Part shown: in pieces, positions 153-60,710 of the stretch | How the letters are laid out: each line of letters begins with the position of its first letter | Position numbering within the stretch: position 1 is the stretch's first letter | Translations under genes and position numbers: made by a program | Assembly (NCBI GenBank): GCA_009773155.1 | Contig: WOVA01000001.1 | Span: forward strand, 104,035 to 168,034 | DNA from: Elusimicrobiota bacterium | GTDB lineage: Bacteria; Elusimicrobiota; Elusimicrobia; Elusimicrobiales; UBA9959 | Direction of reading: 5' to 3' | DNA: 64,000 bases | Notes under the pieces: generated by a model | The model's input: the letters and a program-made list of their open reading frames with translations, nothing else | Told to the model about the DNA's origin: nothing | Databases searched by the model: none

Positions 153-374
153 AAGTACCTGCAAGCTAACGATTAACCGAAAGCACGTTAAGGGTCAGTT
201 TTATCTTGCCGGAAGGGCGGGGTCAAAGAGCGGGGAACCTTGTCCGGAAATTCTAACAAACTAAGGGGCGGGGGAGGAATCCTTTTGCGCGCTTTCCCGT
301 GCGAGCCGCGCAGCTCCGCCGACAGCGGCCGCATCGGCATGAAAAATATATATGAATTTTTGTAATATTGACGG

Positions 375-2471
375 ATGAGCGAGCGCATTGAAGAGCACAT
401 GATTCTGCCCGCGCGCGAAGGCGCGAGTGTGCAGTTCACTTTCGGCGGACGCGAGCTGGAGGCCCTCGACGGCGAGATGATCTCCACGGCGCTGTTCGCC
501 AACGGCATAAAGATATTCAGCCGCCATCACCGCGACGGCAGCCCGCAGGGTATCTTCTGCGCCAACGGCCAATGCGCCCAGTGCTCGGTGCTGGCCGACG
601 GCGTCTCAGTCAAATCCTGCGTCACCCCGGTGCGCGCGGGGATGAAGGTGGAGGAGCTCCGGGGCGTGCCCGGCCTGCCGCCGGCCGTCTGCGTGCAGGA
701 CGCCGGCCGCATAGAGGAGCTGGAGACCGACGCCCTGATACTCGGCGGGGGACCCTCCGGCCTGGCGGCCGCCATCGAGCTGGGCAAGCTGAACGTCCCG
801 ACGATAATACTGGACGACAAGCACAAGCTGGGCGGCAAACTGGTGCTGCAGACGCATAAGTTCTTCGGCTCTATAGAGGACTGCTACGCCGGAACGCGCG
901 GCATAGACATAGCCGACAAGCTGACCGATCAGCTGAAGGAATACCCGTCGGTGAAGGTCTGGCTCAACTCCTCCTGCGTGGCCGTCTTCTCCGACAAGAA
1001 GGCCGGCATAGTGCGCGACGGGACTTATTGCCTGGTCAGGCCCAAGGCCATCGTCACCGCCGCCGGCGCGCGCGAGAAATCGCTGCCCTTCCCCGGCAAT
1101 ACGCTGCCCGGCGTCTACGGCGCGGGCGCCTTCCAGACGCTGGTCAACCGCGACCTGGTGCGCCCTTCCAAAAAGCTCTTTATAGTCGGCGGCGGCAATG
1201 TGGGCCTGATAGCGGCCTATCACGCCATGCAGGCCGGCATACAGGTCATCGGCCTCATCGAGGCGCAGGAGCGCTGCGGCGGCTACAAAGTGCACGAGGA
1301 CAAGATACGGCGCCTCGGCGTGCCGGTCTACACCCGCCACACCATACTGCGCGCGGAAGGCAAAGAAGAACTGGAGCGGGTCACGATAGCGGAGGTGGAC
1401 AGAAAATTCACCCCCCTGCCAGGGACCGAAAAAACATTCGAAGCCGACACGCTGCTGATAGCCGTGGGACTCAACCCGATAAACGAGTTCCACCAGCAGG
1501 CGCTGGCCTTCGGCATGAACGCCTTCGTCTGCGGCGACGCCGAAGATATAGCCGAGGCCTCGGCCGCCATGTTCAGCGGCAAGATAACGGCCCACAAGGT
1601 GCTCAAGCACCTCGGCATCATGGCCGGTCCGGTGCCCGCCTTCTGGTACGAGAAGCTCGAGACGCTCAAGTCCCGGCCCGGCCCTACCGGCGCCGCGAAG
1701 GAGCGGGACCACGACCGCAAGGTCTACCCCGTCCTGCACTGCCTCCAGGAGATACCCTGCAACCCCTGCGCCACCTCCTGCCCCAAGAAGTCGATAAAAA
1801 TACCGGTCGAGAACATCATGGCCGCGCCGAAATTCGAGGGCGAATGCATCGGCTGCTTTAAATGCCTGGTCGTCTGCCCGGGACTGGCGATAACGATAGT
1901 GGACCGCCGCAAGGACGAGAGCGCGCCGACGGTCTCCGTGCCTTTCGAGATAGGCCGCGGCGCGGTGAAGAAGGGCGACGAGCTGGAGCTGACCGACTGG
2001 GAAGGCCGGCCGCTCGGACGCGCCAAAGTCGTCGATATCCGGGACTTCAAGGCCGACAGCACGCTTATACTGCAGCTGGCCGCGGACGGCGCGATCTCCG
2101 ACCGGGTCGCCGGCGTGCGGCTCTACGCGGAAGAGAAGCCGGGCAAGCCGGCGATCACCAGGGATTCACCCGACGAGACGGTCATCTGCCGCTGCGAACG
2201 CGTGACGCTGGGCGAGATACGCCGGGCGCTGCGCTCGGGCGTGCGCGACCTCAACCAGCTCAAAGCCGTCACGCGGGCCGGCATGGGCGCCTGCGGCTCC
2301 AAGACCTGCAATTCGCTGATACTCTCGATCTGCCGCGGCGAGGGCATAAAGCCGGAGGAACTGACCCCGATGACCCAGCGCCCGCTGCTGATGGAGACCG
2401 AGCTGGGGACTTTCGCCAATATAAAGTGCCGCACCGCGATGGAGGAGAAAGCCGGCTGGAGCGGTTTCTAG
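375..2471 (+). CDS. Multidomain iron-sulfur flavoprotein: N-terminal 2Fe-2S domain, FAD/NAD(P) pyridine-nucleotide-disulfide oxidoreductase, 4Fe-4S ferredoxin-like Cys clusters and BFD-like 2Fe-2S domain (HcnA+HcnB / opine or proline dehydrogenase alpha-like)
   Basis: 698-aa ORF. CANGQCAQCSV 2Fe-2S-type motif near the N-terminus, GGGPSG and GGGNVG dinucleotide-binding motifs, CNPCATSCP and CIGCFKCLVVCP ferredoxin motifs, and C-terminal CRCERV...CGSKTC BFD-like motif. Confidence 0.75.
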   Translation: MSERIEEHMILPAREGASVQFTFGGRELEALDGEMISTALFANGIKIFSRHHRDGSPQGIFCANGQCAQCSVLADGVSVKSCVTPVRAGMKVEELRGVPGLPPAVCVQDAGRIEELETDALILGGGPSGLAAAIELGKLNVPTIILDDKHKLGGKLVLQTHKFFGSIEDCYAGTRGIDIADKLTDQLKEYPSVKVWLNSSCVAVFSDKKAGIVRDGTYCLVRPKAIVTAAGAREKSLPFPGNTLPGVYGAGAFQTLVNRDLVRPSKKLFIVGGGNVGLIAAYHAMQAGIQVIGLIEAQERCGGYKVHEDKIRRLGVPVYTRHTILRAEGKEELERVTIAEVDRKFTPLPGTEKTFEADTLLIAVGLNPINEFHQQALAFGMNAFVCGDAEDIAEASAAMFSGKITAHKVLKHLGIMAGPVPAFWYEKLETLKSRPGPTGAAKERDHDRKVYPVLHCLQEIPCNPCATSCPKKSIKIPVENIMAAPKFEGECIGCFKCLVVCPGLAITIVDRRKDESAPTVSVPFEIGRGAVKKGDELELTDWEGRPLGRAKVVDIRDFKADSTLILQLAADGAISDRVAGVRLYAEEKPGKPAITRDSPDETVICRCERVTLGEIRRALRSGVRDLNQLKAVTRAGMGACGSKTCNSLILSICRGEGIKPEELTPMTQRPLLMETELGTFANIKCRTAMEEKAGWSGF

Positions 2472-2474
2472 AAT

Positions 2475-3632
2475 ATGGCAGACAAAAACTACGATGTCCT
2501 CATACTCGGGGCCGGCAGCGTGGGCACGCCGCTGGCGCTGGAGCTGGCCGAAAAAGGCCGGCGGGTCCTGGTCCTCGACGAGCTGGCTTCGGCCGGCCAG
2601 GGCCAGAACAAGGAGGCCATCGGCGGCGTCCGCGCGACGCATTCCGACGGCGCCAAGATTAAGACCGGTCTGCGCAGCCTGGAAGTCTTCTCCACCTGGC
2701 ATGAGCGCCGCGGCGACGATATAGGCTGGCTGAAGGGAGGCTACTGCTTCCCGGTCTATACCGAGAGCGACGAGCGGCTGCTTAAGGAAATGCTCAAGGT
2801 GCAGCAGGCCTTCGGCCTCAATATCTCCTGGCTGGGGCCGGAGGAGATAAAGAAGCTGGCCCCCGGCATCAGCCCATGCGACCTGCGCGGCGGCACTTAT
2901 GCCCCCGACGACGGCAGCGCCTCGCCGCTCCTTTCCGGCCAGGCCTTCTACCGGGCGGCGGTAAAAGCCGGCGCGGAGTTCCGGTTCAATGAAAAAGTCA
3001 CCGGGCTCGACATATCGGGCGGCGCCGTGAAGGGCGTCATGACCGACAAGGGCTCCTACGCCGCGGCGGCGGTAGTCAACGCCGCCGGCGCCAAAGGCGC
3101 GGAGATCGCCGCGATGGCGGGGATGACGGTCCCGGTCAGGCCGGACTGCCACGAGGCCGGCATCACCGAGCCGCTCAAGCCTTTCCTCAAGCCGATGATA
3201 GTGGACATACGGCCCGGGGATAAGTCCAAGAACTACTATTTCTACCAGAATTCCGAGGGCCAGCTGGTGTTCTGCCTCACCCCCAACCCGCCGGTCTGGG
3301 GCGACGACTGCCGCGCCACCTCCGAATTTCTGCCGGAGGTCTCGCGGCGCATGATAAACCTGATGCCGCAGCTCTCGGGCGTGAAGGTGCGCCGCACCTG
3401 GCGCGGCCTCTACCCCATGACCCCGGACGGCTTCCCTATAGTGGACGCCGGCGCGGGACCGGAGGGCTTCGTACTGGCTGTGGGCATGTGCGGCCAGGGC
3501 TTCATGCTGGGCCCCGGCCTGGCCCCCACCATAGCGCGGGTCATGGACGGCGCCCCCACGGAAGAAGATAAAGAGATCCTGCACGGCTTCCGGCTCGACC
3601 GCGAGTTCGCGGGCATGGAAAAACTGAAATAG
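2475..3632 (+). CDS. FAD-dependent oxidoreductase, DAO family (sarcosine oxidase beta / HcnC-like partner subunit)
   Basis: 385-aa ORF 3 nt after the previous stop. N-terminal YDVLILGAGSVG FAD-binding fingerprint and typical DAO-family length. Confidence 0.8.
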   Translation: MADKNYDVLILGAGSVGTPLALELAEKGRRVLVLDELASAGQGQNKEAIGGVRATHSDGAKIKTGLRSLEVFSTWHERRGDDIGWLKGGYCFPVYTESDERLLKEMLKVQQAFGLNISWLGPEEIKKLAPGISPCDLRGGTYAPDDGSASPLLSGQAFYRAAVKAGAEFRFNEKVTGLDISGGAVKGVMTDKGSYAAAAVVNAAGAKGAEIAAMAGMTVPVRPDCHEAGITEPLKPFLKPMIVDIRPGDKSKNYYFYQNSEGQLVFCLTPNPPVWGDDCRATSEFLPEVSRRMINLMPQLSGVKVRRTWRGLYPMTPDGFPIVDAGAGPEGFVLAVGMCGQGFMLGPGLAPTIARVMDGAPTEEDKEILHGFRLDREFAGMEKLK

Positions 3633-3708: not shown

Positions 3709-4971
3709 ATGAAAAAAACATCCCTTTTCGCGCTGCTATTCGTACTCCTGACGGCCCTGGCGGGCGCGCCGGCATCCGCGGAAGAAATAACCTGGGAGCA
3801 ATGCGTGCGCGAGGCGCTGGCCAACAACCCGTCGCTGAGCGCCAGGAGGCTGGCGATAGAGCAGAACAGGCATACTTACCTGTCCGGCTATAACGCTTTC
3901 ATGCCCAATATCAGCCTGTCCCATTCGGTAAGCCGCAGCGGCGGGGACGGCTCGGACGCCTCCACCAGCTGGCGGGCGGGCATCTCGGCCACGGAGACCC
4001 TGTTCAATCTTAAGACCTTCTCCTCCATAAGGTCCTCCAAGCTGGGCTATGAGAAGGCCGAGGCCGATTACAGGGCGGAATCCGCCTCGCTGCGCCTGAC
4101 GCTCTACTCCGCCCTCGTCAATCTGCTCTTCGCGCAGGAGCGGCTGGCGGCGCAGGAAAAAGTGACGGAACTGCGCGGCCAGAACGCCCGCCTCATAAAA
4201 CTCAAGTACGAGAGCGGCATGGAGTCGCGCGGGAACATGATGCACGCCGACGCCCTCCACGAAGTGGCCCTGGCCGACACGGCCAAGGCCCGGCGCTCGC
4301 TGGAGACGGCGCGCCGCGACCTGCTGGCCGCGATGGGGACCTCCGGGTACCGGCCCCTGACGGTCCGCGGGGAGCTCTCCTCCCCGGAGTACGAGCTGGA
4401 TACGCGGGACCTGCGGCCCCTGATCGAGGCTTCGCCGCGGATAATCTCGCAGCGGAAGAGCCTCAGCGTGCAGGAGGAGCGGCTGCTGTCGGCGAAATAC
4501 GACGCGGCCCCAAGCCTGAGCGCCAGCCAGTCCATGAGCTGGAGCGGACCCTACGAGTTCCCCGACCGGAGAAGCTGGTCGCTGGGCCTCTCCCTCAGCG
4601 TGCCGCTATTCTCCAACGGCCCTACTTACTACCTGCACAATACCGCCTCGGCCAGGGCGGCGCTCAAGGCCGCCGGGGAAAGCCTGCGCGGCACGGTGCT
4701 GGACCTTGAGAACAATATCCTCGGCTATTACGACGAGTTCCTCAACGCCGTCCAGACGGCGGCGGCGCACGTCAGGATCCTGGAAGCCAGCGAGGAGCGC
4801 TACAAGGAATCGCAGATCAAGTACATGGCGGGAAAAATGAGTTTTCTCGACCTGGAGACGATAGAGCAGAACCTGGTAAGCGCGCGGCTCAACCAGCTGG
4901 AATACCTAAAGAACGCCAACACGCGCAAACTGGCCGTCGAGAACCTGCTCGGCGTGGGCCTCGGCGACTGA
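3709..4971 (+). CDS. TolC-family outer membrane efflux protein
   Basis: Signal peptide MKKTSLFALLFVLLTALAGAPASA. Two-repeat OEP-like sequence with coiled regions. First gene of a TolC/adaptor/MacB trio. ATG at 3709 preferred over TTG at 3703. Confidence 0.8.
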   Translation: MKKTSLFALLFVLLTALAGAPASAEEITWEQCVREALANNPSLSARRLAIEQNRHTYLSGYNAFMPNISLSHSVSRSGGDGSDASTSWRAGISATETLFNLKTFSSIRSSKLGYEKAEADYRAESASLRLTLYSALVNLLFAQERLAAQEKVTELRGQNARLIKLKYESGMESRGNMMHADALHEVALADTAKARRSLETARRDLLAAMGTSGYRPLTVRGELSSPEYELDTRDLRPLIEASPRIISQRKSLSVQEERLLSAKYDAAPSLSASQSMSWSGPYEFPDRRSWSLGLSLSVPLFSNGPTYYLHNTASARAALKAAGESLRGTVLDLENNILGYYDEFLNAVQTAAAHVRILEASEERYKESQIKYMAGKMSFLDLETIEQNLVSARLNQLEYLKNANTRKLAVENLLGVGLGD

Positions 4972-6015: not shown

Positions 6016-7956
6016 ATGATCGAGCTTAAAGGCATCAGGAAAATATACCGTATGGGCGGCGAGGACCTGGAGGTCCTCAAGGGCGTCGACCTTACGGTCA
6101 AAGAGGGCGAGTTCGTCGCCATCATGGGCCCGTCCGGCTCCGGCAAATCCACGCTGATGCACATCCTGGGCCTGCTCGACAGGCCCAGCGCCGGCTCGTT
6201 CAAACTCTACGGCCGCGAGATAAGCGATCTCGACGACGCGGAGCTCTCCTACCTGCGGGCCCGCATCATAGGCTTCGTCTTCCAGCAGTTCAACCTGCTG
6301 CCGCGCATGACCGCCGCGGAGAATACCTCGCTGCCCCAGATCTACCTGGGCGACAAGGTCAACCCCGCGGCGGCGCTCCGGCACCTGGCGGCCGTCGGCC
6401 TCTCCGACAGGGCCGGGCACCGGCCCAACCAGCTTTCCGGCGGACAGCAGCAGCGCGTAGCCATCGCGCGCTCGATGGTAAACGAGCCTCGCATCGTCTT
6501 CGCCGACGAGCCCACCGGCAACCTGGCCTCCGTCCAGGCCGACGAGATCATGAACATCTTCAAGGGCCTCAACGAGCGGGGCATAACCGTGATCCTGGTC
6601 ACGCACGAGCCGGATATAGCCGCCTGGGCCGACCGGACCATCAGGCTGAAGGACGGCCTCATAATCGAGGATACCTCTAAAAAGCCCGCGCCGGAGGGCG
6701 AAGGCAAGCCGGTGAGGGTGCCCGCCAGCTTCTTCCTGACCTGGCGCGAGGTGGCCGAGAACATGGCCTCGTCGGTGCGCTCTATACTCAGCAACAAGAC
6801 CCGCTCGCTGCTGACCATGCTGGGAATCATCATAGGCGTCGGCGCGCTGATCGCCATGCTGGCCGTCGGCACCGGCGCGCAGAAGGCCATAGAGAAGCAG
6901 ATGTCGTCGCTGGGCACCAACCTCCTCTCGGTCATGCCGGCCCGCATGAGCGCCCGCGGCCCGTCCCAGGGCTTCGGCGGGACCAGCCGGCTCACGATGG
7001 AGGACGCCTCCGCACTGGCCCGCCTTCCCAATGTCGTCAGGACCGACTCGCTGGTCTCGGGCAACGCCCAGGTGGTCTACGGGGCCAGGAACCACCGCAC
7101 CTCCGTGGTCGGCGCCGGCGCCGTCTACGCCTCCATGCGCGCGGCGCAGCCTTTCTTCGGCCGCTTCTTCTCCGACCAGGAGGCCCGGCAGATGCGCAAG
7201 GTGGCCGTCATCGGCCAGACCGTGGCCAATGAACTTTTCGGCACGGAGGACCCGGTAGGCAAGACCATAAAGTTAAACCGCCGCAACTTCTCCGTCATAG
7301 GCGTGCTGCCCTTTAAGGGAGCGCAGGGCCCGCGCGACCAGGACGACACCGTCATCATCCCCCTTCAGACGGCGATGAAGACGGTACTGGGCAAGCAGTA
7401 CGTGGATTCCATCTGGGTGGAGATGGCGGATTTTCATCTTATGGGAGAGGCCCAGGAGCGGATCACGACGATGATGCGCCAGCGCAAGGGCCTGGCCGAC
7501 CATAAGGACGACACCTTTATGATCATGAACATGGCCGAGTTCCAGTCCATGCTCACCGGCACTATAAAGACCTTCAGCACGCTGCTGGGCTTCATAGCGG
7601 GCATCTCGCTGATAGTCGGCGGCATCGGCATCATGAACATCATGCTGGTCAGCGTCAGCGAGCGCACAAAGGAGATCGGCCTGCGCAAGGCCATCGGCGC
7701 CACAAAGCGGGCCGTGCTGCTGCAGTTCCTCATCGAGGCCGTGATAGTCTCCGTCATCGGCGGGATGCTCGGCATCGTGGCGGGCGCCGGCGGAGCCCTC
7801 ATCCTCTCCAAAGTCTCGGGGTGGGCCGTCTACATCTCTCCCGGTTCCGTCGCCCTGGCCTTCGGCTTCTCCGCCGGCGTCGGCGTGGTCTTCGGCTTCT
7901 GGCCGGCCAAAAAAGCCTCCGACCTGTCCCCTATAGACGCCCTCCGCTACGAATGA
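6016..7956 (+). CDS. macB: MacB-type ABC transporter, fused ATPase and FtsX-like permease
   Basis: Walker A GPSGSGKST, signature LSGGQQQRVAIARS, Walker B IVFADEPTGNL, and a C-terminal 4-TM FtsX-type permease with a large periplasmic loop. Confidence 0.9.
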   Translation: MIELKGIRKIYRMGGEDLEVLKGVDLTVKEGEFVAIMGPSGSGKSTLMHILGLLDRPSAGSFKLYGREISDLDDAELSYLRARIIGFVFQQFNLLPRMTAAENTSLPQIYLGDKVNPAAALRHLAAVGLSDRAGHRPNQLSGGQQQRVAIARSMVNEPRIVFADEPTGNLASVQADEIMNIFKGLNERGITVILVTHEPDIAAWADRTIRLKDGLIIEDTSKKPAPEGEGKPVRVPASFFLTWREVAENMASSVRSILSNKTRSLLTMLGIIIGVGALIAMLAVGTGAQKAIEKQMSSLGTNLLSVMPARMSARGPSQGFGGTSRLTMEDASALARLPNVVRTDSLVSGNAQVVYGARNHRTSVVGAGAVYASMRAAQPFFGRFFSDQEARQMRKVAVIGQTVANELFGTEDPVGKTIKLNRRNFSVIGVLPFKGAQGPRDQDDTVIIPLQTAMKTVLGKQYVDSIWVEMADFHLMGEAQERITTMMRQRKGLADHKDDTFMIMNMAEFQSMLTGTIKTFSTLLGFIAGISLIVGGIGIMNIMLVSVSERTKEIGLRKAIGATKRAVLLQFLIEAVIVSVIGGMLGIVAGAGGALILSKVSGWAVYISPGSVALAFGFSAGVGVVFGFWPAKKASDLSPIDALRYE

Positions 7957-7959
7957 TAT

Positions 7960-8045
7960 CCGGGGACAGCAGACGTAATTCCCCGAAAACCGTTTAAACC
8001 GCGCCGGGCGGCGGGGCAGAATGGAATTACGCATACTGTCCCCGG
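7960..8045. repeat. Imperfect inverted repeat (23-nt arms) just after the macB stop
   Basis: ccggggacagcagacgtaattcc (7960-7982) versus ggaattacgcatactgtccccgg (8023-8045). The outer 9 nt and inner 9 nt of each arm are complementary. Confidence 0.5.
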
Positions 8046-8062
8046 ATTGTTATAATTTGGAT

Positions 8063-19278: not shown

Positions 19279-20934
19279 TCACCGGGCGCCTCCGCTGACG
19301 CAGGCGGAATGGCAGGCGCCGTGGCAGGCCGAATGGCAGGCGCTGTGGCAGGCAGAGTGGCACGCGTCGTGACAGGCCGAATGGCACGCGTCGTGGCAGG
19401 CGTCGCGCCCGAAGGCCCCCTCGTAGCAGGACTTCGAGGTCCTGAAGGTCGCGAAATCCAGGGCGGCGGCGTCGCCGAGCGAACCTTTCAGCCCCTCGCC
19501 GACGGCGGCGGAATTATCGTAGCGGCTGTCGTCGAGGCGCAGGAAGCGGCGCCTGTAGCCGCCCCAGTACCAGCCTTGATCGGTCCCGGGGCCGGCCGGG
19601 ACGTCGGTCTCGGCCTTTTTCCTGTAATAGGCCTTCGTCTCCTCCAGGTCGGCGTCCCAGATCTTCTGCTCCATACCGGCCGCTATGCTTTTGACCATCT
19701 CTTTAAGCGCGGGCTCGTCCACCGAGCCGTCCGGCTTTATGCCGCCGAGCAGCAGCGTCTCGTAAGGATCGTTGCTGGCGTAGATATGCGGCGGCTTGCT
19801 CACGCGCAGCGGGTCGGTGCCGGTTATCTTAACCAGCCCCTTGCGCTCCATGTTGCCCAGTATCAGCGCGCCCAGTTCGATCAGCGGCAGGCCCAGTATC
19901 ACGCCCGCCTCTATGGGGCTGAGGTCCTTTGCCACCTTGCCCGGCTTGCGGAAAGAGCTGACCTGCGCCTTGGGCGGCTCCCATTCGGTGCCCTCCCAGT
20001 TGACCTCCGAGATGCCGGCCTGCGCCACCAGCATGGAATTGTGCTTGCGCGTCATTATGACGAAAGGCAGCACGCCGAAGAAGACGGCGAAGATCAGCGC
20101 CAGGAAGAGGGTCTCGCCGCGGCTGACCGGGACCGTGGCCAGTACGCCGCCGGGAAAATAGCGGCCAAGGTAATAGCTCTCCGGCGCGGCCCTCCAGGGA
20201 CCTTTCGGCGTGCCGGCCAGCAGACCCGCGGAAGCCATCGTCTGCAGATCGAACACGCCGGCGTCCATATAGGTCTGCGTGCGCATGTGGAACTTAGCGC
20301 CGGCGCCCTTCCTGTGATAGCGCACGGTGAACAGCCGCTCGCCGGCCTCGTTGACCGTCTCGGGATAATCGATGAGGTAGCGCTCGTTCACGAATTTTTC
20401 GGTCATGAACGAGAGACGGGCCGCCGCGGCCTCGCCGGTCTCGCCGGGACCGAGCGGCACGGGATAGACGACCTTCACCGTCATATGCTCCAGCGGCTCG
20501 TCCCACTGCACCGGCGACCAGTTGAAGACCGCCAGGCGCCTGTCGCCGGCCATGGTCTGGGTCAGCGTGCCGGCGGCCTGAAAATCCGCCGTGTAGCGGA
20601 AGAAGAAGGTAATGTCGCCGCCGCCGAACCCGCGGCCGCCGGCCAGGACGATATCGTACTTGCGGCCCGACAGATGGCTTATGTCCAGGCTGTAGCGCTC
20701 GCCGCGGTCGTCCACGGCGTAGGCGCCCGCGCGGTCGAACAGCGGCGGCTCGGCCGCGCCCTCGAAGTAGAAGGCGTGTATCTCGCGCCCGGTCACGCCC
20801 CAGCGCACTGTATAGGCCACCTGGCCGCGCCCGTCGCGGTCCAGGACCACCTCGGTCTCGGTCCATTTAAGGTCGTAGCCGGCCGACGCCAGAGAAGGCA
20901 GGCAGAATAACAGGCAGAAAATCAGTTTTTTCAT
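19279..20934 (-). CDS. Signal-peptide/TM protein (DUF2207-like architecture) ending in a C-terminal (Ala-Cys-His-X)x8 repeat tail
   Basis: Start at MKKLIFCLLFCLPSLASA (ATG 20934, GAGGGG upstream). One clear TM helix (LFLALIFAVFFGVLPFVIM then RKH). LSPIEAGVILG...MERKGLVKI region. C-terminus is GRD-ACHD-ACHS-ACHD-ACHS-ACHS-ACHS-ACHG-ACHS-ACVSGGAR. Confidence 0.75.
   Translation of the reverse strand: MKKLIFCLLFCLPSLASAGYDLKWTETEVVLDRDGRGQVAYTVRWGVTGREIHAFYFEGAAEPPLFDRAGAYAVDDRGERYSLDISHLSGRKYDIVLAGGRGFGGGDITFFFRYTADFQAAGTLTQTMAGDRRLAVFNWSPVQWDEPLEHMTVKVVYPVPLGPGETGEAAAARLSFMTEKFVNERYLIDYPETVNEAGERLFTVRYHRKGAGAKFHMRTQTYMDAGVFDLQTMASAGLLAGTPKGPWRAAPESYYLGRYFPGGVLATVPVSRGETLFLALIFAVFFGVLPFVIMTRKHNSMLVAQAGISEVNWEGTEWEPPKAQVSSFRKPGKVAKDLSPIEAGVILGLPLIELGALILGNMERKGLVKITGTDPLRVSKPPHIYASNDPYETLLLGGIKPDGSVDEPALKEMVKSIAAGMEQKIWDADLEETKAYYRKKAETDVPAGPGTDQGWYWGGYRRRFLRLDDSRYDNSAAVGEGLKGSLGDAAALDFATFRTSKSCYEGAFGRDACHDACHSACHDACHSACHSACHSACHGACHSACVSGGAR
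19300..19401 (-). repeat. Tandem 12-bp coding repeat (about 8.5 units) encoding ACHX tetrapeptides
   Basis: Plus-strand periodicity gcaggcNNaatg/gtg is visible across 19300-19401. Translates on the minus strand to ACHDACHSACHDACHSACHSACHSACHGACHSAC. Confidence 0.9.
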
Positions 20935-20986
20935 CGTACCCCTCGCCGGCTGGAACGGTGCCGCATTTTTCATATAATATAAAAAC

Positions 20987-21081
20987 GGGACGCTGATTAC
21001 TAAATGATTAATTATGCACAGGCACGGATCCCGTCTTGAGCGAAGACCAGAGGGAATTAATCATTTAGTAATCAGCGTCCC
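20987..21081. repeat. AT-rich hairpin element, copy 1: perfect 27-bp inverted repeat with 41-nt loop
   Basis: Left arm gggacgctgattactaaatgattaatt (20987-21013) is the exact reverse complement of 21055-21081. TATAAT lies at 20973-20978 just upstream, and SD GGAGG plus ATG 21099 lie just downstream. Near-identical copy at 60387-60472. Confidence 0.9.
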
Positions 21082-21098
21082 CTAAGCGGAGGACCGAA

Positions 21099-21506
21099 AT
21101 GATCAAGATCGTCAAACAATACAGCGTTTTCCTGCCTAACATCCCGGGCGCCCTGAGCAAGTTCGTGGAACTCTTCTCCAGGGAGGGCGTCAACATCATC
21201 GGCATAGCCTCCGAGATTCGCGACGACTCCGGCATCGTGCGCATCACCGTGGACACCGACCGCAAGATCAGCTACCTGCTGACCAACGCCGGCTTCACCA
21301 CCGTAGAGACGCAGATGATACTCATCGAGCTGCCCGACAAGCCCGGCACCCTCTTCAAACTGACCTCGATGCTGGCGGACAACGGCATCAATATCACCAC
21401 GGTCTACGGCACCACCTACACCGGGTCCATAGGCCACCTGCTGCTCAATGTCTCCGACGCGGGAAAGGCCATGGAGCTGATAAAGGGCATGCTGGAAACC
21501 AAATAG
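21099..21506 (+). CDS. Tandem ACT-domain protein (small-molecule-binding regulatory protein)
   Basis: 135 aa with two ACT-like halves (VFLPNIPGALSKFVELFSREGVNI; IELPDKPGTLFKLTSMLADNGINI). Confidence 0.75.
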   Translation: MIKIVKQYSVFLPNIPGALSKFVELFSREGVNIIGIASEIRDDSGIVRITVDTDRKISYLLTNAGFTTVETQMILIELPDKPGTLFKLTSMLADNGINITTVYGTTYTGSIGHLLLNVSDAGKAMELIKGMLETK

Positions 21507-44672: not shown

Positions 44673-45797
44673 TCACTGCGCGCGCAACGGCATCACTATG
44701 TAGAGGAATTCCTCTCCCTTGACCGGCTTGATAAGGGCCGGGGTGGAGGGAGCGTTGAATTCCATGAGGGCCTTGGCTTCCCCTATATTCCTGAGCACGT
44801 CCATCACGAACTTGGGATTGAAGCTGACCTGCAGGTCCTTGCCCTTGTAGTCGACGTCCGTCTCGTCCTCGAAATCCATGGTCTGGGACGAGGAGTTGAC
44901 TACCAGCACGCCTTTCTTGAAAGTATATTTGACCGCGCCGCTGCGTTCGTTGGAGCAGAGGGAGGCGCGCTTGGTGAGAGCCAGCAGCCGCGCCGTGTCT
45001 ATCTCGACCGAGGTCTCGCGGGTCCTGGGGATGATCTGCTCGTAGGCGGGAAAGTTCCCCTCGATGAGCCTGGAGACGAAGACCGTCTTTGCGATACGGA
45101 ACCCTATCTGGTTGGAGGAGAGGCCCACCGTCAACTCCTCTTTTTCGCCCAGGTCGGCCGCTGTTATGAACTTGACCAGCTCGCCGAGTATCTTGGACGG
45201 CACGATGACCTTGAAATCATTCTTCGCCTTGACTGCCTGGCTGGTGGCGACGGCCAGGCGGCGGCCGTCGGTGGCCACCACCGAAAAAACTCCCTTTTCG
45301 TATTTCCACAGGAGGCCGTTGAGAAAATGCCTCTCGTCCTCGGCGGCGATCGAGAAGAGGGTCCGCGACACCATATCGGCTATGAGGGAGGCGGGAGCTT
45401 TGAAGGAATTGCTTTCGTCCAGGTCGGGGATCACCGGGTAGTCGGCCTTGGGCGCGCCGCTGATCTTGAACCGGGTCTTGCCGGAGAGGATGGAGACCTT
45501 GTTGCCGTCGTCCACGTTCACGTTCACGTCCGCGTCGGGACCGAGGTTCTGTATTATCTCAAGGAACTTCTTTATAGGGACCGTTATGCTGCCGTCCCCC
45601 TTCACCTCCACGTTTATGTGGTGCTTTATGGCCATCTCGAGGTCGGTGAAGACGACCCTGAGACCCTGGTCCTCGGTCTCCATCAGGAAGTTCTGGAGTA
45701 TGGGCAGGGTCCCCGTCTTGGCCGAGACGCCGGCCTGGATGGTCTGTATTCCCCTGATGAGGTTCTCCCGGTTACTATTTATTTTCATCATCATCAT
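44673..45797 (-). CDS. dnaN: DNA polymerase III beta sliding clamp
   Basis: 374 aa with the three-domain clamp pattern (ILQNFLMETEDQGLRVVFTDLE...). Immediately downstream of dnaA. Confidence 0.95.
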   Translation of the reverse strand: MMMMKINSNRENLIRGIQTIQAGVSAKTGTLPILQNFLMETEDQGLRVVFTDLEMAIKHHINVEVKGDGSITVPIKKFLEIIQNLGPDADVNVNVDDGNKVSILSGKTRFKISGAPKADYPVIPDLDESNSFKAPASLIADMVSRTLFSIAAEDERHFLNGLLWKYEKGVFSVVATDGRRLAVATSQAVKAKNDFKVIVPSKILGELVKFITAADLGEKEELTVGLSSNQIGFRIAKTVFVSRLIEGNFPAYEQIIPRTRETSVEIDTARLLALTKRASLCSNERSGAVKYTFKKGVLVVNSSSQTMDFEDETDVDYKGKDLQVSFNPKFVMDVLRNIGEAKALMEFNAPSTPALIKPVKGEEFLYIVMPLRAQ

Positions 45798-45900: not shown

Positions 45901-45909
45901 TTATCCACA
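45901..45909 (+). promoter_or_regulatory. Perfect DnaA box TTATCCACA in the dnaA-dnaN intergenic region
   Basis: Exact 9-mer 5 nt from the dnaA stop codon. The adjacent direct repeat ctgttgaaa occurs twice at 45823-45840. Confidence 0.7.
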
Positions 45910-45913
45910 GCTT

Positions 45914-47284
45914 TTACTTGTTGCTGACAGACTTTATCTTGGTTATCAAGGTGTTCACCAGTTCGTTGATGAAGAGGTCGGTGTGCACCATATTCTGTAT
46001 CTTATTGCGCGCGTAGATGACCGTGGTGTGGTCCTTGCCGAAGGCGTCCCCCACGTTGGTGGTGGACAGTTCCGTCAGTTCGCAGGCCAGGTACATCGCG
46101 ATCTGGCGCGGCACCACCACCGAGTCCCGGCGCCCCTTGGAGCGCAGGTCCTTGGTGTCGAGCTGGTACTTCTCGGCCACTACGCTTATTATGGTCTCTA
46201 TGCTGATCTTGTCCCCGTCGTCCTGGTTTATACCCATGTGGTCCTTGATTATCCCGCGGACCACGTCTATGGTGGGCTGCAGCCGCATGTTCATGCAATA
46301 GTTGCCGACCGTCAGCAGGCAGCCGTCGAGTTCCCTGATGCTGGTCTTGACGTTCTCGCCTATGAAGTTGACGACGTCGTCGGGTATCTCGAACTTGTAC
46401 TGGTCGCGCTTCTCGCGCAGGATGGCGATGCGGGTTTCCAGGTCGGGCTGCTTCATGTCGGCTATGGTGCCCGAGAGGAAGCGGGAGACCAGGCGCTGGG
46501 CCAGCGAGAGTTCGCGGGGCGGCCGGTCGGAGGTGACCACTATCTGTTTCTTGGATTCGAACAGCGCGTTGAAGGTGTAGAAGAACTCCTCCTCGCTGCG
46601 CTCCTTGCCCATCAGGAACTGTATATCGTCGAGCAGCAGGCAGTCGAGCTTGCGGTACTTGCCGCGGAAGAGTTCGGCCGAGTTGCTCTTGTTCTGTATG
46701 GTGTCGATGTACTCGTTGACGAAATTCTCGCTGGGGGTGTAGATCACCTTGGCCGCCGGGTTGAGGCGCAGTATCTCGTTGGCTATGGCGTGCATCAGGT
46801 GGGTCTTGCCCAGGCCCGGCGGGCTGTAGATGAAGAAGGGGTTGGAGAGGTGCCCGGGTTTCTCGGCCACGGCCTTGGCCGAGTTGTAGGCCCAGCGGTT
46901 GGACGGCCCCACTATGAAGGTCTGGAAGGTGTAGTTGGGATTGAAGGACGAGTGCGCGGCGGCCTGGGGCCTGGATGCCGGCGCGGCCTGGATCTCGGGC
47001 TGCGGGGCGGGCCGGGGCTCCCTGGGGGCCAGCGAGAGGGAATAATCTATCTTATAGTCTTTACCGGAAAGTTCCGAAAGGGCGCGGATTATCACTTCCT
47101 CGTAGCGCTTTTTAATGGTTTCAAATATAAGAGGGTCGGGCACTTCCAGTTTGACCGTATCGCCCTCGATAACAAGCACCGAGACCGGCCTCATCCAGAG
47201 GTCGAAAGGGTCCTTGCCTATTTCCTGCTCGATTTTGACGCAGGCGTTCTGCCAGAGTTCTTTGCTGTTTATTGAGTTATCCAC
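45914..47284 (-). CDS. dnaA: Chromosomal replication initiator protein DnaA
   Basis: Walker A GPPGLGKTHL, box VII/sensor motifs, and a C-terminal DNA-binding domain (PRQIAMYLACELT...FGKDHTTV). GTG start at 47284. Confidence 0.95.
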   Translation of the reverse strand: MDNSINSKELWQNACVKIEQEIGKDPFDLWMRPVSVLVIEGDTVKLEVPDPLIFETIKKRYEEVIIRALSELSGKDYKIDYSLSLAPREPRPAPQPEIQAAPASRPQAAAHSSFNPNYTFQTFIVGPSNRWAYNSAKAVAEKPGHLSNPFFIYSPPGLGKTHLMHAIANEILRLNPAAKVIYTPSENFVNEYIDTIQNKSNSAELFRGKYRKLDCLLLDDIQFLMGKERSEEEFFYTFNALFESKKQIVVTSDRPPRELSLAQRLVSRFLSGTIADMKQPDLETRIAILREKRDQYKFEIPDDVVNFIGENVKTSIRELDGCLLTVGNYCMNMRLQPTIDVVRGIIKDHMGINQDDGDKISIETIISVVAEKYQLDTKDLRSKGRRDSVVVPRQIAMYLACELTELSTTNVGDAFGKDHTTVIYARNKIQNMVHTDLFINELVNTLITKIKSVSNK

Positions 47285-47296
47285 AACTTATCCACA
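47277..47296 (+). promoter_or_regulatory. Two perfect tandem DnaA boxes (TTATCCACA x2) at the dnaA start
   Basis: ttatccaca at 47277-47285 and 47288-47296, in the same orientation, 2 nt apart. Confidence 0.8.
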
Positions 47297-47553
47297 AGTG
47301 TTAATATCGCGGTGTTTTGACTGAAAAACGTATATAAAATAAGCGTTTTATTTGTTAATTATGCTTTCAGGGCTTGACTTAGCAAGACTTGATCAAAAAA
47401 CGCAAAAAGACCCGGTTTTTCCCTGTGCAAAGACGATTTACGGTAAGGAAAATATTACCTTAAATACATAGAGTGTGTCAACAGGGGCCGGAAAATCAGG
47501 CAGGCGCTTTTTAAAGGCAGGCTGAAAGCCCCTTAAAAGGGGCCCGGATGGCT
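47285..47553. other. Putative chromosomal replication origin (oriC) with AT-rich unwinding region
   Basis: Largest non-coding, strongly AT-rich island in the window (for example aaaaacgtatataaaataagcgttttatttgttaattatgc), immediately upstream of dnaA and abutting the DnaA boxes. Confidence 0.7.
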
Positions 47554-60273: not shown

Positions 60274-60386
60274 AGTATAAGAGTGTAGCGCGGGCCGGGC
60301 CGGAAAGTCAGTGTCCGGGGACCCAGGAGGGACCCGGAAAAAGCACCAGCCCGGTCTGGGTCCAACGGCCCAATTGGTATAATTAG

Positions 60387-60472
60387 GGGACGCTGATTAC
60401 TAAATGACTAATTATCCACAGGGGCAGTCTTCACCGCAGGACCGTAATTAGTCATTTAGTAATCAGCGTCCC
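60387..60472. repeat. AT-rich hairpin element, copy 2: perfect 28-bp inverted repeat with 30-nt loop
   Basis: gggacgctgattactaaatgactaatta (60387-60414) is the exact reverse complement of 60445-60472. Extended -10 TGGTATAAT ends at 60383. SD AAGGAG at 60474-60479. Confidence 0.9.
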
Positions 60473-60479
60473 TAAGGAG

Positions 60480-60710
60480 ATGACCATGAAAGACAAGGTT
60501 GCGAAGGTTATAGAGAAGATAAAGCCGATACTGGCGGCCGACGGCGGTTCCGTGGAGCTGGTAGCGGTCGACGAGAAGAGCGGCGTGGTCACCGTGCGCC
60601 TGACCGGCGCCTGCGGCTGCTGCCCCCACGCGGCCATGACGCTCAAGGGCGTGGTGGAGCGCATGGTGCGCGAAGCGGTCCCCGAGGTCAAGGAAGTCAC
60701 CGTCGGCTGA
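60480..60710 (+). CDS. NifU C-terminal-domain-like Fe-S cluster scaffold/carrier protein
   Basis: LAADGGSVELV...LTGACGCCPHAAMTLKG (CxxC) pattern. The true start may be the second ATG at 60486 given the SD spacing. Confidence 0.8.
   Translation: MTMKDKVAKVIEKIKPILAADGGSVELVAVDEKSGVVTVRLTGACGCCPHAAMTLKGVVERMVREAVPEVKEVTVG

Follow-up and report, generated by a model that had tools for sequence, protein, structure and literature searches.

Why does a GC-rich bacterial genome carry two conspicuous AT-rich hairpins, each lodged between a −10 element and a Shine-Dalgarno (SD) sequence? The hairpins lie in a 64-kb stretch of the Elusimicrobiota bacterium assembly GCA_009773155.1 (WOVA01000001.1, positions 104,035 to 168,034; hereafter the window, within which coordinates are counted), copy 1 upstream of an ACT-domain gene and copy 2 upstream of a NifU-like gene. 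An earlier note on this DNA had taken them for either a functional structured leader or a promoter-carrying mobile cassette. Comparison with related genomes makes it very probable that each hairpin is a nonautonomous REPIN-like doublet, in which two inverted terminal inverted repeats (TIRs) of the TIRYT/TIRtron type enclose a short spacer and have inserted into the leader of a gene. Such an origin would explain both hairpins without a new regulatory RNA, would guard against their misannotation as riboswitch-like leaders, and would extend a little-studied transposase class to Elusimicrobia.

The two doublets are laid out as follows.

20987 to 21013, plus strand: copy 1 left arm, a TIR variant with ATGATTAA as its second box
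21014 to 21054, plus strand: copy 1 spacer, 41 nt
21055 to 21081, minus strand: copy 1 right arm, the inverted TIR
60387 to 60414, plus strand: copy 2 left arm (TIR), consisting of the head GGGACGCTG, box 1 ATTACTAA, box 2 ATGACTAA, and TTA
60415 to 60444, plus strand: copy 2 spacer, the 30-nt hairpin loop
60445 to 60472, minus strand: copy 2 right arm, the same TIR inverted

The architecture described for copy 2, with an extended −10 TGGTATAAT ending at 60383, a perfect repeat of 28 bp (arms 100% complementary), AAGGAG, and ATG codons at 60480 and 60486, holds at every coordinate. Copy 1 shares the layout, but its perfect arms are 27 nt long and not 28, the pairing being ended by A21014 opposite G21054. 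The only difference between the arms of the two copies is the reported paired change, T21008/A21060 in copy 1 versus C60408/G60451 in copy 2, which retains pairing. The loops do differ in length and sequence, but both open with TTAT[C/G]CACAGG. Each arm is built from a head, (T)AGGGGACGCTG, and two direct tandem boxes of 8 nt, ATTACTAA and ATGA(C/T)TAA, with neither a GTAG nor an internal palindrome. Both hairpins begin 3 to 8 nt 3′ of a −10 and end 2 to 7 nt 5′ of an SD.

The hairpins are far beyond chance, as had been claimed. The window contains four copies of the 21-nt arm core, and 100 shuffles produced none; the leader RNAs have predicted folding energies of −49.7 and −54.9 kcal/mol (z = −8.8 and −8.2), with the SD unpaired. 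A terminator scan called none at either hairpin because there is no U-tract, and a sigma-70 scan called no promoter at either site because no −35 match stands beside the −10. Stems this perfect and stable, in the same position relative to −10 and SD at both genes, are what would be expected if the hairpins were selected cis-regulatory leaders that coregulate the NifU-like and ACT genes, either originally or by exaptation, as elements that affect RNA stability or translation or as a switch operated by RNase III. A duplex of 27 to 28 bp is also of a size that suits RNase III. The Rfam search speaks against such leaders, as nothing in the window reached the gathering threshold. In E-value mode, eukaryotic miRNA-precursor models alone were returned, far below threshold; this is generic behavior of long hairpins, and we discarded the matches as spurious.

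What the arms are became apparent in other Elusimicrobia, where, as judged by alignment, the same sequence forms the TIRs around a transposase gene. In one related locus (L004; loci outside the window are cited by our own labels), the arm occurs at 3829 (+) and 4927 (−), inverted and ∼1.1 kb apart, around a 320-amino-acid (aa) open reading frame (ORF). At the corresponding locus L107/L108, both TIRs are identical to the copy 2 arm at 27 of 27 positions and to the copy 1 arm at 26 of 27. Colinearity between L107 and L004 extends over 6.97 kb (91.5% identity), and the transposase gene is therefore a vertically inherited, single-copy chromosomal locus.

The 320-aa ORF matched Pfam Y1_Tnp (35.3 bits; cut-off, 23) and, just below the cut-off of that model, Bac_DnaA_C (27.5 bits); NCBIfam REP_Tyr_transpos matched with an E value of 5.5e-17, and JGI names relatives “REP element-mobilizing transposase RayT.” The residues H60-F61-H62 and R101-Y102 are invariant in an alignment of 25 homologues; among 40 sequences, H60, H62, and R101-Y102 are still invariant and F61 is at least 90% conserved. 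We used the AlphaFold model of P0241 (the L107/L108 protein, 87% identical to the L004 ORF; pLDDT, 85) for fold searches. With Foldseek, the best PDB match was Escherichia coli TnpA-REP on a repetitive extragenic palindromic (REP) hairpin (4er8; E = 6e-7; TM, 0.73), and further matches included the TnpA proteins of IS608 and ISDra2 (2xma, 2vjv, and others). The C-terminal domain resembles DnaA domain IV on DNA (3pvp and 1j1v; TM, 0.73 to 0.75). A phmmer search of PDB with the single transposase protein found nothing and a profile search matched only DnaA domain IV; the link to TnpA-REP came from the fold search. By its domain matches and predicted fold, then, the protein is a HUH-Y1 RAYT-type transposase with a DnaA-domain-IV-like C terminus (TIRYT, RAYT group 1, or TnpA-Y1 subclass 2.1).

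TIRtrons were described as RAYT-like genes flanked by long TIRs rather than REPs; the TIRs share the motif GGGGWSAS and form moderately abundant families of singles, dimers, and clusters (Di Nocera et al. 2013, PMC3733652). Most TIRYTs belong to TnpA-Y1 subclass 2.1, which is marked by a Bac_DnaA_C/helix-turn-helix (HTH) domain at the C terminus and corresponds to RAYT group 1 (Quentin et al. 2018, PMC6006769), and the 16-mers flanking RAYT group 1 genes reach ∼12 copies per replicon (Bertels et al. 2017, PMC5581495). The gene in the related genomes resembles these systems in its Y1 HUH transposase with a C-terminal Bac_DnaA_C-like HTH and in the long TIRs that bracket it at a near-constant distance. 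The TIR is likewise headed by GGGG, and its copies elsewhere occur as singles and inverted dimers at moderate abundance. Among the differences, Elusimicrobia do not appear in the text of PMC6006769 or in the portions of PMC3733652 and PMC5581495 cited here, and the cited portions of all three papers likewise make no mention of tandem 7- to 9-nt boxes or of an inner-edge TTATNCACA.

To characterize the TIRs further, we scanned metagenomes with the transposase protein, which yielded 537 relatives, and examined the 24 near-full-length ones. Nearly all (22/24) are bracketed by inverted repeats of 19 to 39 nt with the same design, in which the head, (T)AGGGGACG(C/T)TG, precedes a tandem pair of direct boxes of 7 to 9 nt that are lineage specific (for example, two copies each of ATGACTAA, ATTCCTA, GTTGACTA, or GTAGGTTTT). 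In distant members, the TIR reads GGTGCCGTTG plus two copies of TTCACAG. In the 13 pairs whose spacing was measured, the repeats stand ∼1.0 to 1.1 kb apart, and the two members of a pair mismatch at 0 to 2 of 27 positions. On these alignments, the head-plus-tandem-box design is general in the transposase clade and changes together with the protein. Distances between TIR boxes correlated with those between proteins (Mantel r = 0.53 to 0.59; P ≤ 0.001), but this correlation is confounded by shared vertical descent, which alone would yield it, and is consistent with codivergence rather than decisive. The many natural variants and their modularity, with a fixed head and lineage-specific boxes, offer a start for dissecting recognition by the HUH domain and the DnaA-like domain.

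The paired change between copies 1 and 2 had been taken as a compensatory change and hence as a sign of selected pairing. For comparison, we set 8 short doublets (85 to 221 bp) against 14 transposase-flanking pairs (∼0.7 to 1.1 kb apart). Arms within a pair differed at a mean of 0.86 of 27 positions and arms from different pairs at 7.9, with zero to two mismatches per long-range pair and zero to four per short doublet. Arms ∼1 kb apart thus covary as tightly as those of the hairpins, and the compensatory change is therefore accounted for by two copies of one protein site. Arm covariation needs no base pairing of the transcript, and the sequence that a selected leader would have to own is dictated by the TIR of a transposase.

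The arm is also dispersed. An exact scan of species-representative genomes for the 21-mer GCTGATTACTAAATGAYTAAT returned 11 stretches, 9 of them in six Elusimicrobia metagenome-assembled genomes (MAGs) (four contigs from one MAG) and 1 in a bin labeled Verrucomicrobia (bacterium GWC2_42_7; L010). L010 holds the same arm family, which could reflect misbinning or horizontal transfer. A Muribaculaceae match (L006) lacked the head and was set aside as a probable chance match to the 21-mer. The flanks upstream of GGGGAC are unrelated among copies, and the repeat unit therefore starts there; among 72 distinct TIR ends, no flank is conserved beyond ∼2 nt, with (T)A preferred before GGGG. Short inverted doublets occur in L005 (81 bp) and L011 (91 bp), and the one in L005 carries both arm variants, ATGACTAA and ATGATTAA, which circulate in other genomes as well. 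L013 has two ∼175-bp doublets (3419 to 3594 and 6593 to 6768; 86% identical to each other) with the same arms and a conserved interior; these ∼176-bp elements form a larger nonautonomous subfamily. One side of their interior is occupied by a terminator-like hairpin and the opposite side by TTCCATTTGCTGGAATAACCACATTGCG, and partial copies are present in L010 and L012. The first base of the left arm is the exact point at which two independent short-read assemblies of the nifU locus of the window stop, as assemblies typically do at multicopy repeats.

Single arms were found joined to a small hairpin (AAATGACT/AGTCATTT) and a GC hairpin with a T-run, both in Elusimicrobia and in L010, at the following positions.

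L009: 3578, minus strand, and 2508, minus strand
L012: 1669, minus strand
L010: 2481, plus strand
L007: 2380, plus strand, and 6118, plus strand
L014: 754, minus strand

In L009 (both singlets), L010, and L012, the arm starts at, or no more than ∼30 nt from, the stop codon of the upstream gene, and the modules look like repeat-borne intrinsic terminators. In L014, a group II intron (298 to 597, minus strand; Rfam D1 to D4 models, 140 and 71 bits) lies directly after such a module. Some bacterial group II introns habitually insert behind terminator hairpins, and the position of this one fits that habit.

If the hairpins are insertions, related genomes should show the leaders without them. The signals of the two host genes in the window, all outside the doublets, are the following.

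20973 to 20978, plus strand: native −10 TATAAT of the ACT-domain gene
21088 to 21093: SD GGAGGA of the ACT-domain gene, whose start codon is at 21099
60375 to 60383, plus strand: native extended −10 TGGTATAAT of the NifU-like gene, kept in orthologues
60474 to 60479, plus strand: native SD AAGGAG of the NifU-like gene, found in all orthologous loci
60486 to 60710, plus strand: NifU-domain gene downstream of the insertion, 74 aa (Pfam NifU; E = 8.9e-25)

Syntenic nifU loci from six other contigs are 83 to 87% identical to the window at the nucleotide level and share the order amylase, adenosyltransferase, (one or two extra genes in some loci), nifU, PHP, GDPD, and NadA. L015/L017, L016, and L020 lack the hairpin and read TG(C/G)TATAAT, ∼17 to 20 nt, AAGGAG, and ATG; L021/L022, also without a hairpin, have the same spacing and SD with TATAAT only, i.e., no TG extension. 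The closest relatives, L018 and L019 (87.4%), keep the TG(C/G)TATAAT extended −10 and read tataattaggtATCAGCGTCCCCaaggag, where nothing of the hairpin remains but the final 12 nt of the right arm, ATCAGCGTCCCC. At the second locus, the ACT orthologue in L023 (from the same MAG as L019; protein, 96% identical) reads tataatatcaaaatagcggagacggagttagcggaggaccaaaATG, with −10 and SD kept and no hairpin. As the −10 (extended at nifU) and the SD are present in hairpin-less orthologues, they belong to the genes and not to a cassette. By this comparison, both copies in the window are insertions between a preexisting −10 and a preexisting SD, and the apparent promoter/SD logic is where the element landed rather than its cargo. 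A short GGGGACGCCATGCGGCCTGGGGTCCCC hairpin is present upstream of the ACT promoter in L023 (∼2395 to 2440), and the window has none at 20944 to 20965; this GGGGAC-headed indel suggests that such hairpins turn over quickly in this group.

These sites bear on both readings in the earlier note. The mobile part of its cassette has stood up well: the arm is dispersed, equals a transposase TIR, and is absent from sister leaders, so that by alignment both its dispersal and its insertion polymorphism are shown. A Correia-type miniature inverted-repeat transposable element that brings its own −10 and SD would account for the −10 directly upstream and the SD directly downstream of both copies; it is contradicted by the empty sites, where both signals already exist, by the unconserved flanks of the TIR ends, and by the lack of a TA duplication and of sequence similarity to Correia, and we find it hardly credible. 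The selected cis-regulatory leader also fares poorly, if somewhat less so. At nifU, four sister lineages lack the hairpin, as does the single ACT orthologue, yet all of them conserve promoter and SD, and the same arm recurs in many unrelated contexts, including gene 3′ ends, intergenic regions, and the surroundings of the transposase gene. In its favor, the nifU remnant in the closest sister species hints that copy 2 is old yet undecayed. On balance, we consider a selected leader improbable.

We also asked whether insertion is targeted next to a −10 (open complex). A −10-like hexamer lies no more than 18 nt from 12 of 73 TIR ends, versus 2.6% at random positions, but we draw no conclusion from this, as coding DNA is part of the control and the promoter side of the transposase gene itself accounts for many of the matches.

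Several observations weigh against the transposase-derived doublets that we favor. The arm head GGGGACGC fits GGGGWSAS at seven of eight positions (G for A), and the NCBIfam RAYT model REP_Tyr_transpos scores 62 bits, under its curated cut-off of 80. A tblastn search of the 64-kb window with the transposase found no TIRYT gene, a further departure from published TIRtrons, and the presence of the gene elsewhere in the host genome is an assumption. There are only two doublets of this arm family in 64 kb of the host genome. At both copies, ∼12 to 14 nt of the empty orthologous sites are missing from the filled sites; a target duplication was looked for at both and none was found, and a clean empty site could not be reconstructed. 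Two explanations offer themselves for the 12 nt left behind in the closest sister species, namely, an old insertion with perfect arms and a hot spot that was hit repeatedly. If copy 2 is old, its perfect arms would imply maintenance by continued transposase recognition, intrastrand correction, or selection. More generally, transposition of TIRYT-associated TIRs has never been shown experimentally according to the cited portions of PMC3733652 and PMC6006769.

On the transposase-derived reading, we infer by analogy that the doublets are mobilized, now or formerly, in trans by a TIRYT of the genome. The cognate gene would be one encoding Y1_Tnp and DnaA_C-like domains and flanked by GGGGACGCTGATTACTAAATGAYTAAT. 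By analogy with IS608, ISDra2, and E. coli TnpA-REP, the doublet would adopt its hairpin form when the DNA is single stranded, as it is at a replication fork. The HUH-Y1 domain would cleave at the head, which is conserved, and the C-terminal domain, with its likeness to DnaA domain IV, would recognize the tandem boxes, which are lineage specific, on the duplex stem. Transcripts initiated from the native −10 would have their first base at the edge of the left arm or slightly within it, and the mRNA leader would gain a perfect stem of 27 to 28 bp (about −50 kcal/mol) that leaves the SD free and, lacking a U-tract, should not act as a terminator. This stem could make the mRNA more or less stable or serve as an RNase III target. 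Any such effect on expression would probably be a by-product and not the reason for the sequence. With their position between −10 and SD, the insertions provide natural experiments on the expression effects of a 28-bp stem in a leader.

Among known systems, the doublets come close to REPINs in having two inverted units, a short and more variable spacer, and a long hairpin; in both cases, units lie on either side of a Y1 transposase gene that is single copy and vertically inherited, and copies are extragenic, dispersed, and polymorphic between relatives (Bertels and Rainey 2011, PMC3116915). Unlike REPIN units, those described here are nonpalindromic and lack the GTAG tag, the transposase belongs to group 1 with an extra HTH rather than of the REPIN-associated groups 2 and 3, and abundance is probably much lower. 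With IS200/IS605 TnpA (IS608 and ISDra2), the transposase shares the HUH-Y1 catalytic fold in the Foldseek comparison, which makes a single-strand hairpin substrate plausible. The ends of those elements, in contrast, are asymmetric subterminal hairpins and not long TIRs, and their TnpA lacks a DnaA-like domain. A literature search found no paper joining Elusimicrobia with repetitive extragenic palindromic sequences, and the name TIRYT turned up in only three papers.

The comparison with the Correia (NEMIS) elements of Neisseria that the earlier note had drawn is fair as a functional analogy. Both are TIR-bounded miniature elements of ∼100 bp (∼26-bp inverted repeats in Correia) that sit in gene leaders, are cotranscribed, and form long hairpins; the long duplex of cotranscribed copies is a plausible RNase III target. 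The analogy ends at sequence kinship, at the TA target duplication, which is lacking here, and at the promoter elements, which are outside the element here. There is also a candidate cognate transposase here, and we know of none for Correia.

Each doublet also carries a DnaA box, situated where the left arm meets the spacer.

60412 to 60420, plus strand: TTATCCACA, a consensus DnaA box at the arm/spacer junction of copy 2
21012 to 21020: TTATGCACA, which matches TTATNCACA, at the arm/spacer junction of the copy 1 left arm

The DnaA-box consensus TTATNCACA occurs five times in the window, versus 0.28 expected. The two boxes in the doublets differ at the degenerate position only, and the remaining three are exact TTATCCACA boxes that flank dnaA (within 45901 to 45909 and 47277 to 47296). 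The dnaA gene (45914 to 47284, minus strand) is adjoined by dnaN (44673 to 45797, minus strand) and has an AT-rich stretch upstream (47300 to 47480), and the cumulative GC skew reaches its minimum near 40 to 44 kb of the window; this region is probably the chromosomal origin, oriC. The doublets lie 13 and 26 kb from dnaA. Elsewhere, a box with this offset from the head is found again in a TIRtron and a doublet of L039 (3919 to 3927 and 1806 to 1814) and in the L005 doublet (1257 to 1265), and in the distant relative L062, it stands at the inner edge of both flanking repeats (400 to 408 and 1443 to 1451).

It is conceivable that this box, ∼30 nt 3′ of the −10, is the feature that matters, with DnaA or the DnaA-like domain of the TIRYT binding TTATCCACA/TTATGCACA as an operator or for titration near the origin. 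The enrichment, the recurrence at a fixed offset, and the DnaA-domain-IV-like fold of the transposase would fit. The exact box, however, is present in only a minority of TIR ends (2.6%, versus 0.13% in the control) and is missing from most TIRs, including those beside the closest transposase genes, L004 and L107. Furthermore, the TIRYT helix that aligns with the DHTTV motif of DnaA reads (Q)SAVSKL, and canonical DnaA-box specificity is therefore not expected. We regard the box as very unlikely to be the relevant feature. It seems unlikely, too, that the doublets plug into the host DnaA system, whether by recruiting DnaA or the replication fork for transposition, by titration near oriC, or through control of the NifU-like and ACT genes by DnaA or TIRYT. 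The DnaA box is no part of the explanation that we favor, and its coincidence with a DnaA-like domain carries a small chance of added interest.

As for the host genes, the orthologues show that 60486 and not 60480 is the real start of the NifU-like gene. The exact 74-aa protein is on record in Elusimicrobia MAG contigs; exact-protein lookups of the 76-aa NifU start and of the ACT protein found neither on record. The gene downstream of copy 1 encodes a 135-aa ACT-pair protein whose ACT domains were confirmed. Close relatives of the NifU and ACT proteins come from Elusimicrobia MAGs. The divergent upstream neighbors are a cobalamin adenosyltransferase and, upstream of copy 1, a 564-aa protein without a Pfam match (minus-strand ORF, 19279 to 20973), the C terminus of which (19279 to 19400) is a Cys/His-rich run of ACH(D/S/G) repeats.

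A GC-rich element 5′ of the nifU −10 (60300 to 60372) is conserved in all orthologous loci, with the pattern CAGTG(C/T)CC..GG(A/G)CCCAGG, a variable hairpin, and TGGG(A/T)CCA(A/T)(C/T/G)GG(C/T)CC. RNAalifold gave it a weak consensus stem in which 4 of 14 pairs are compensated. It could act as an operator or as the −35 region, or it could give the divergent transcript a structured RNA.

Two further TIR-like repeats are present in the window.

7958 to 8047, plus strand: third hairpin doublet, with 25-nt arms (88% complementary) and a 40-nt loop
16229 to 16260, plus strand: lone TIR-like sequence that belongs to a second family and lies between divergent genes, reading GGGGACGTTG, then GTTTAGTT and CTTTAGTT

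The head of the third doublet, GGGGACAG at 7962, matches the published GGGGWSAS exactly, and like both hairpins described above, this doublet lies between a stop codon and TATAAT/ATG. The solitary sequence is followed by two tandem copies of the 12-mer CTAGAATTATCC, which extend to 16285.

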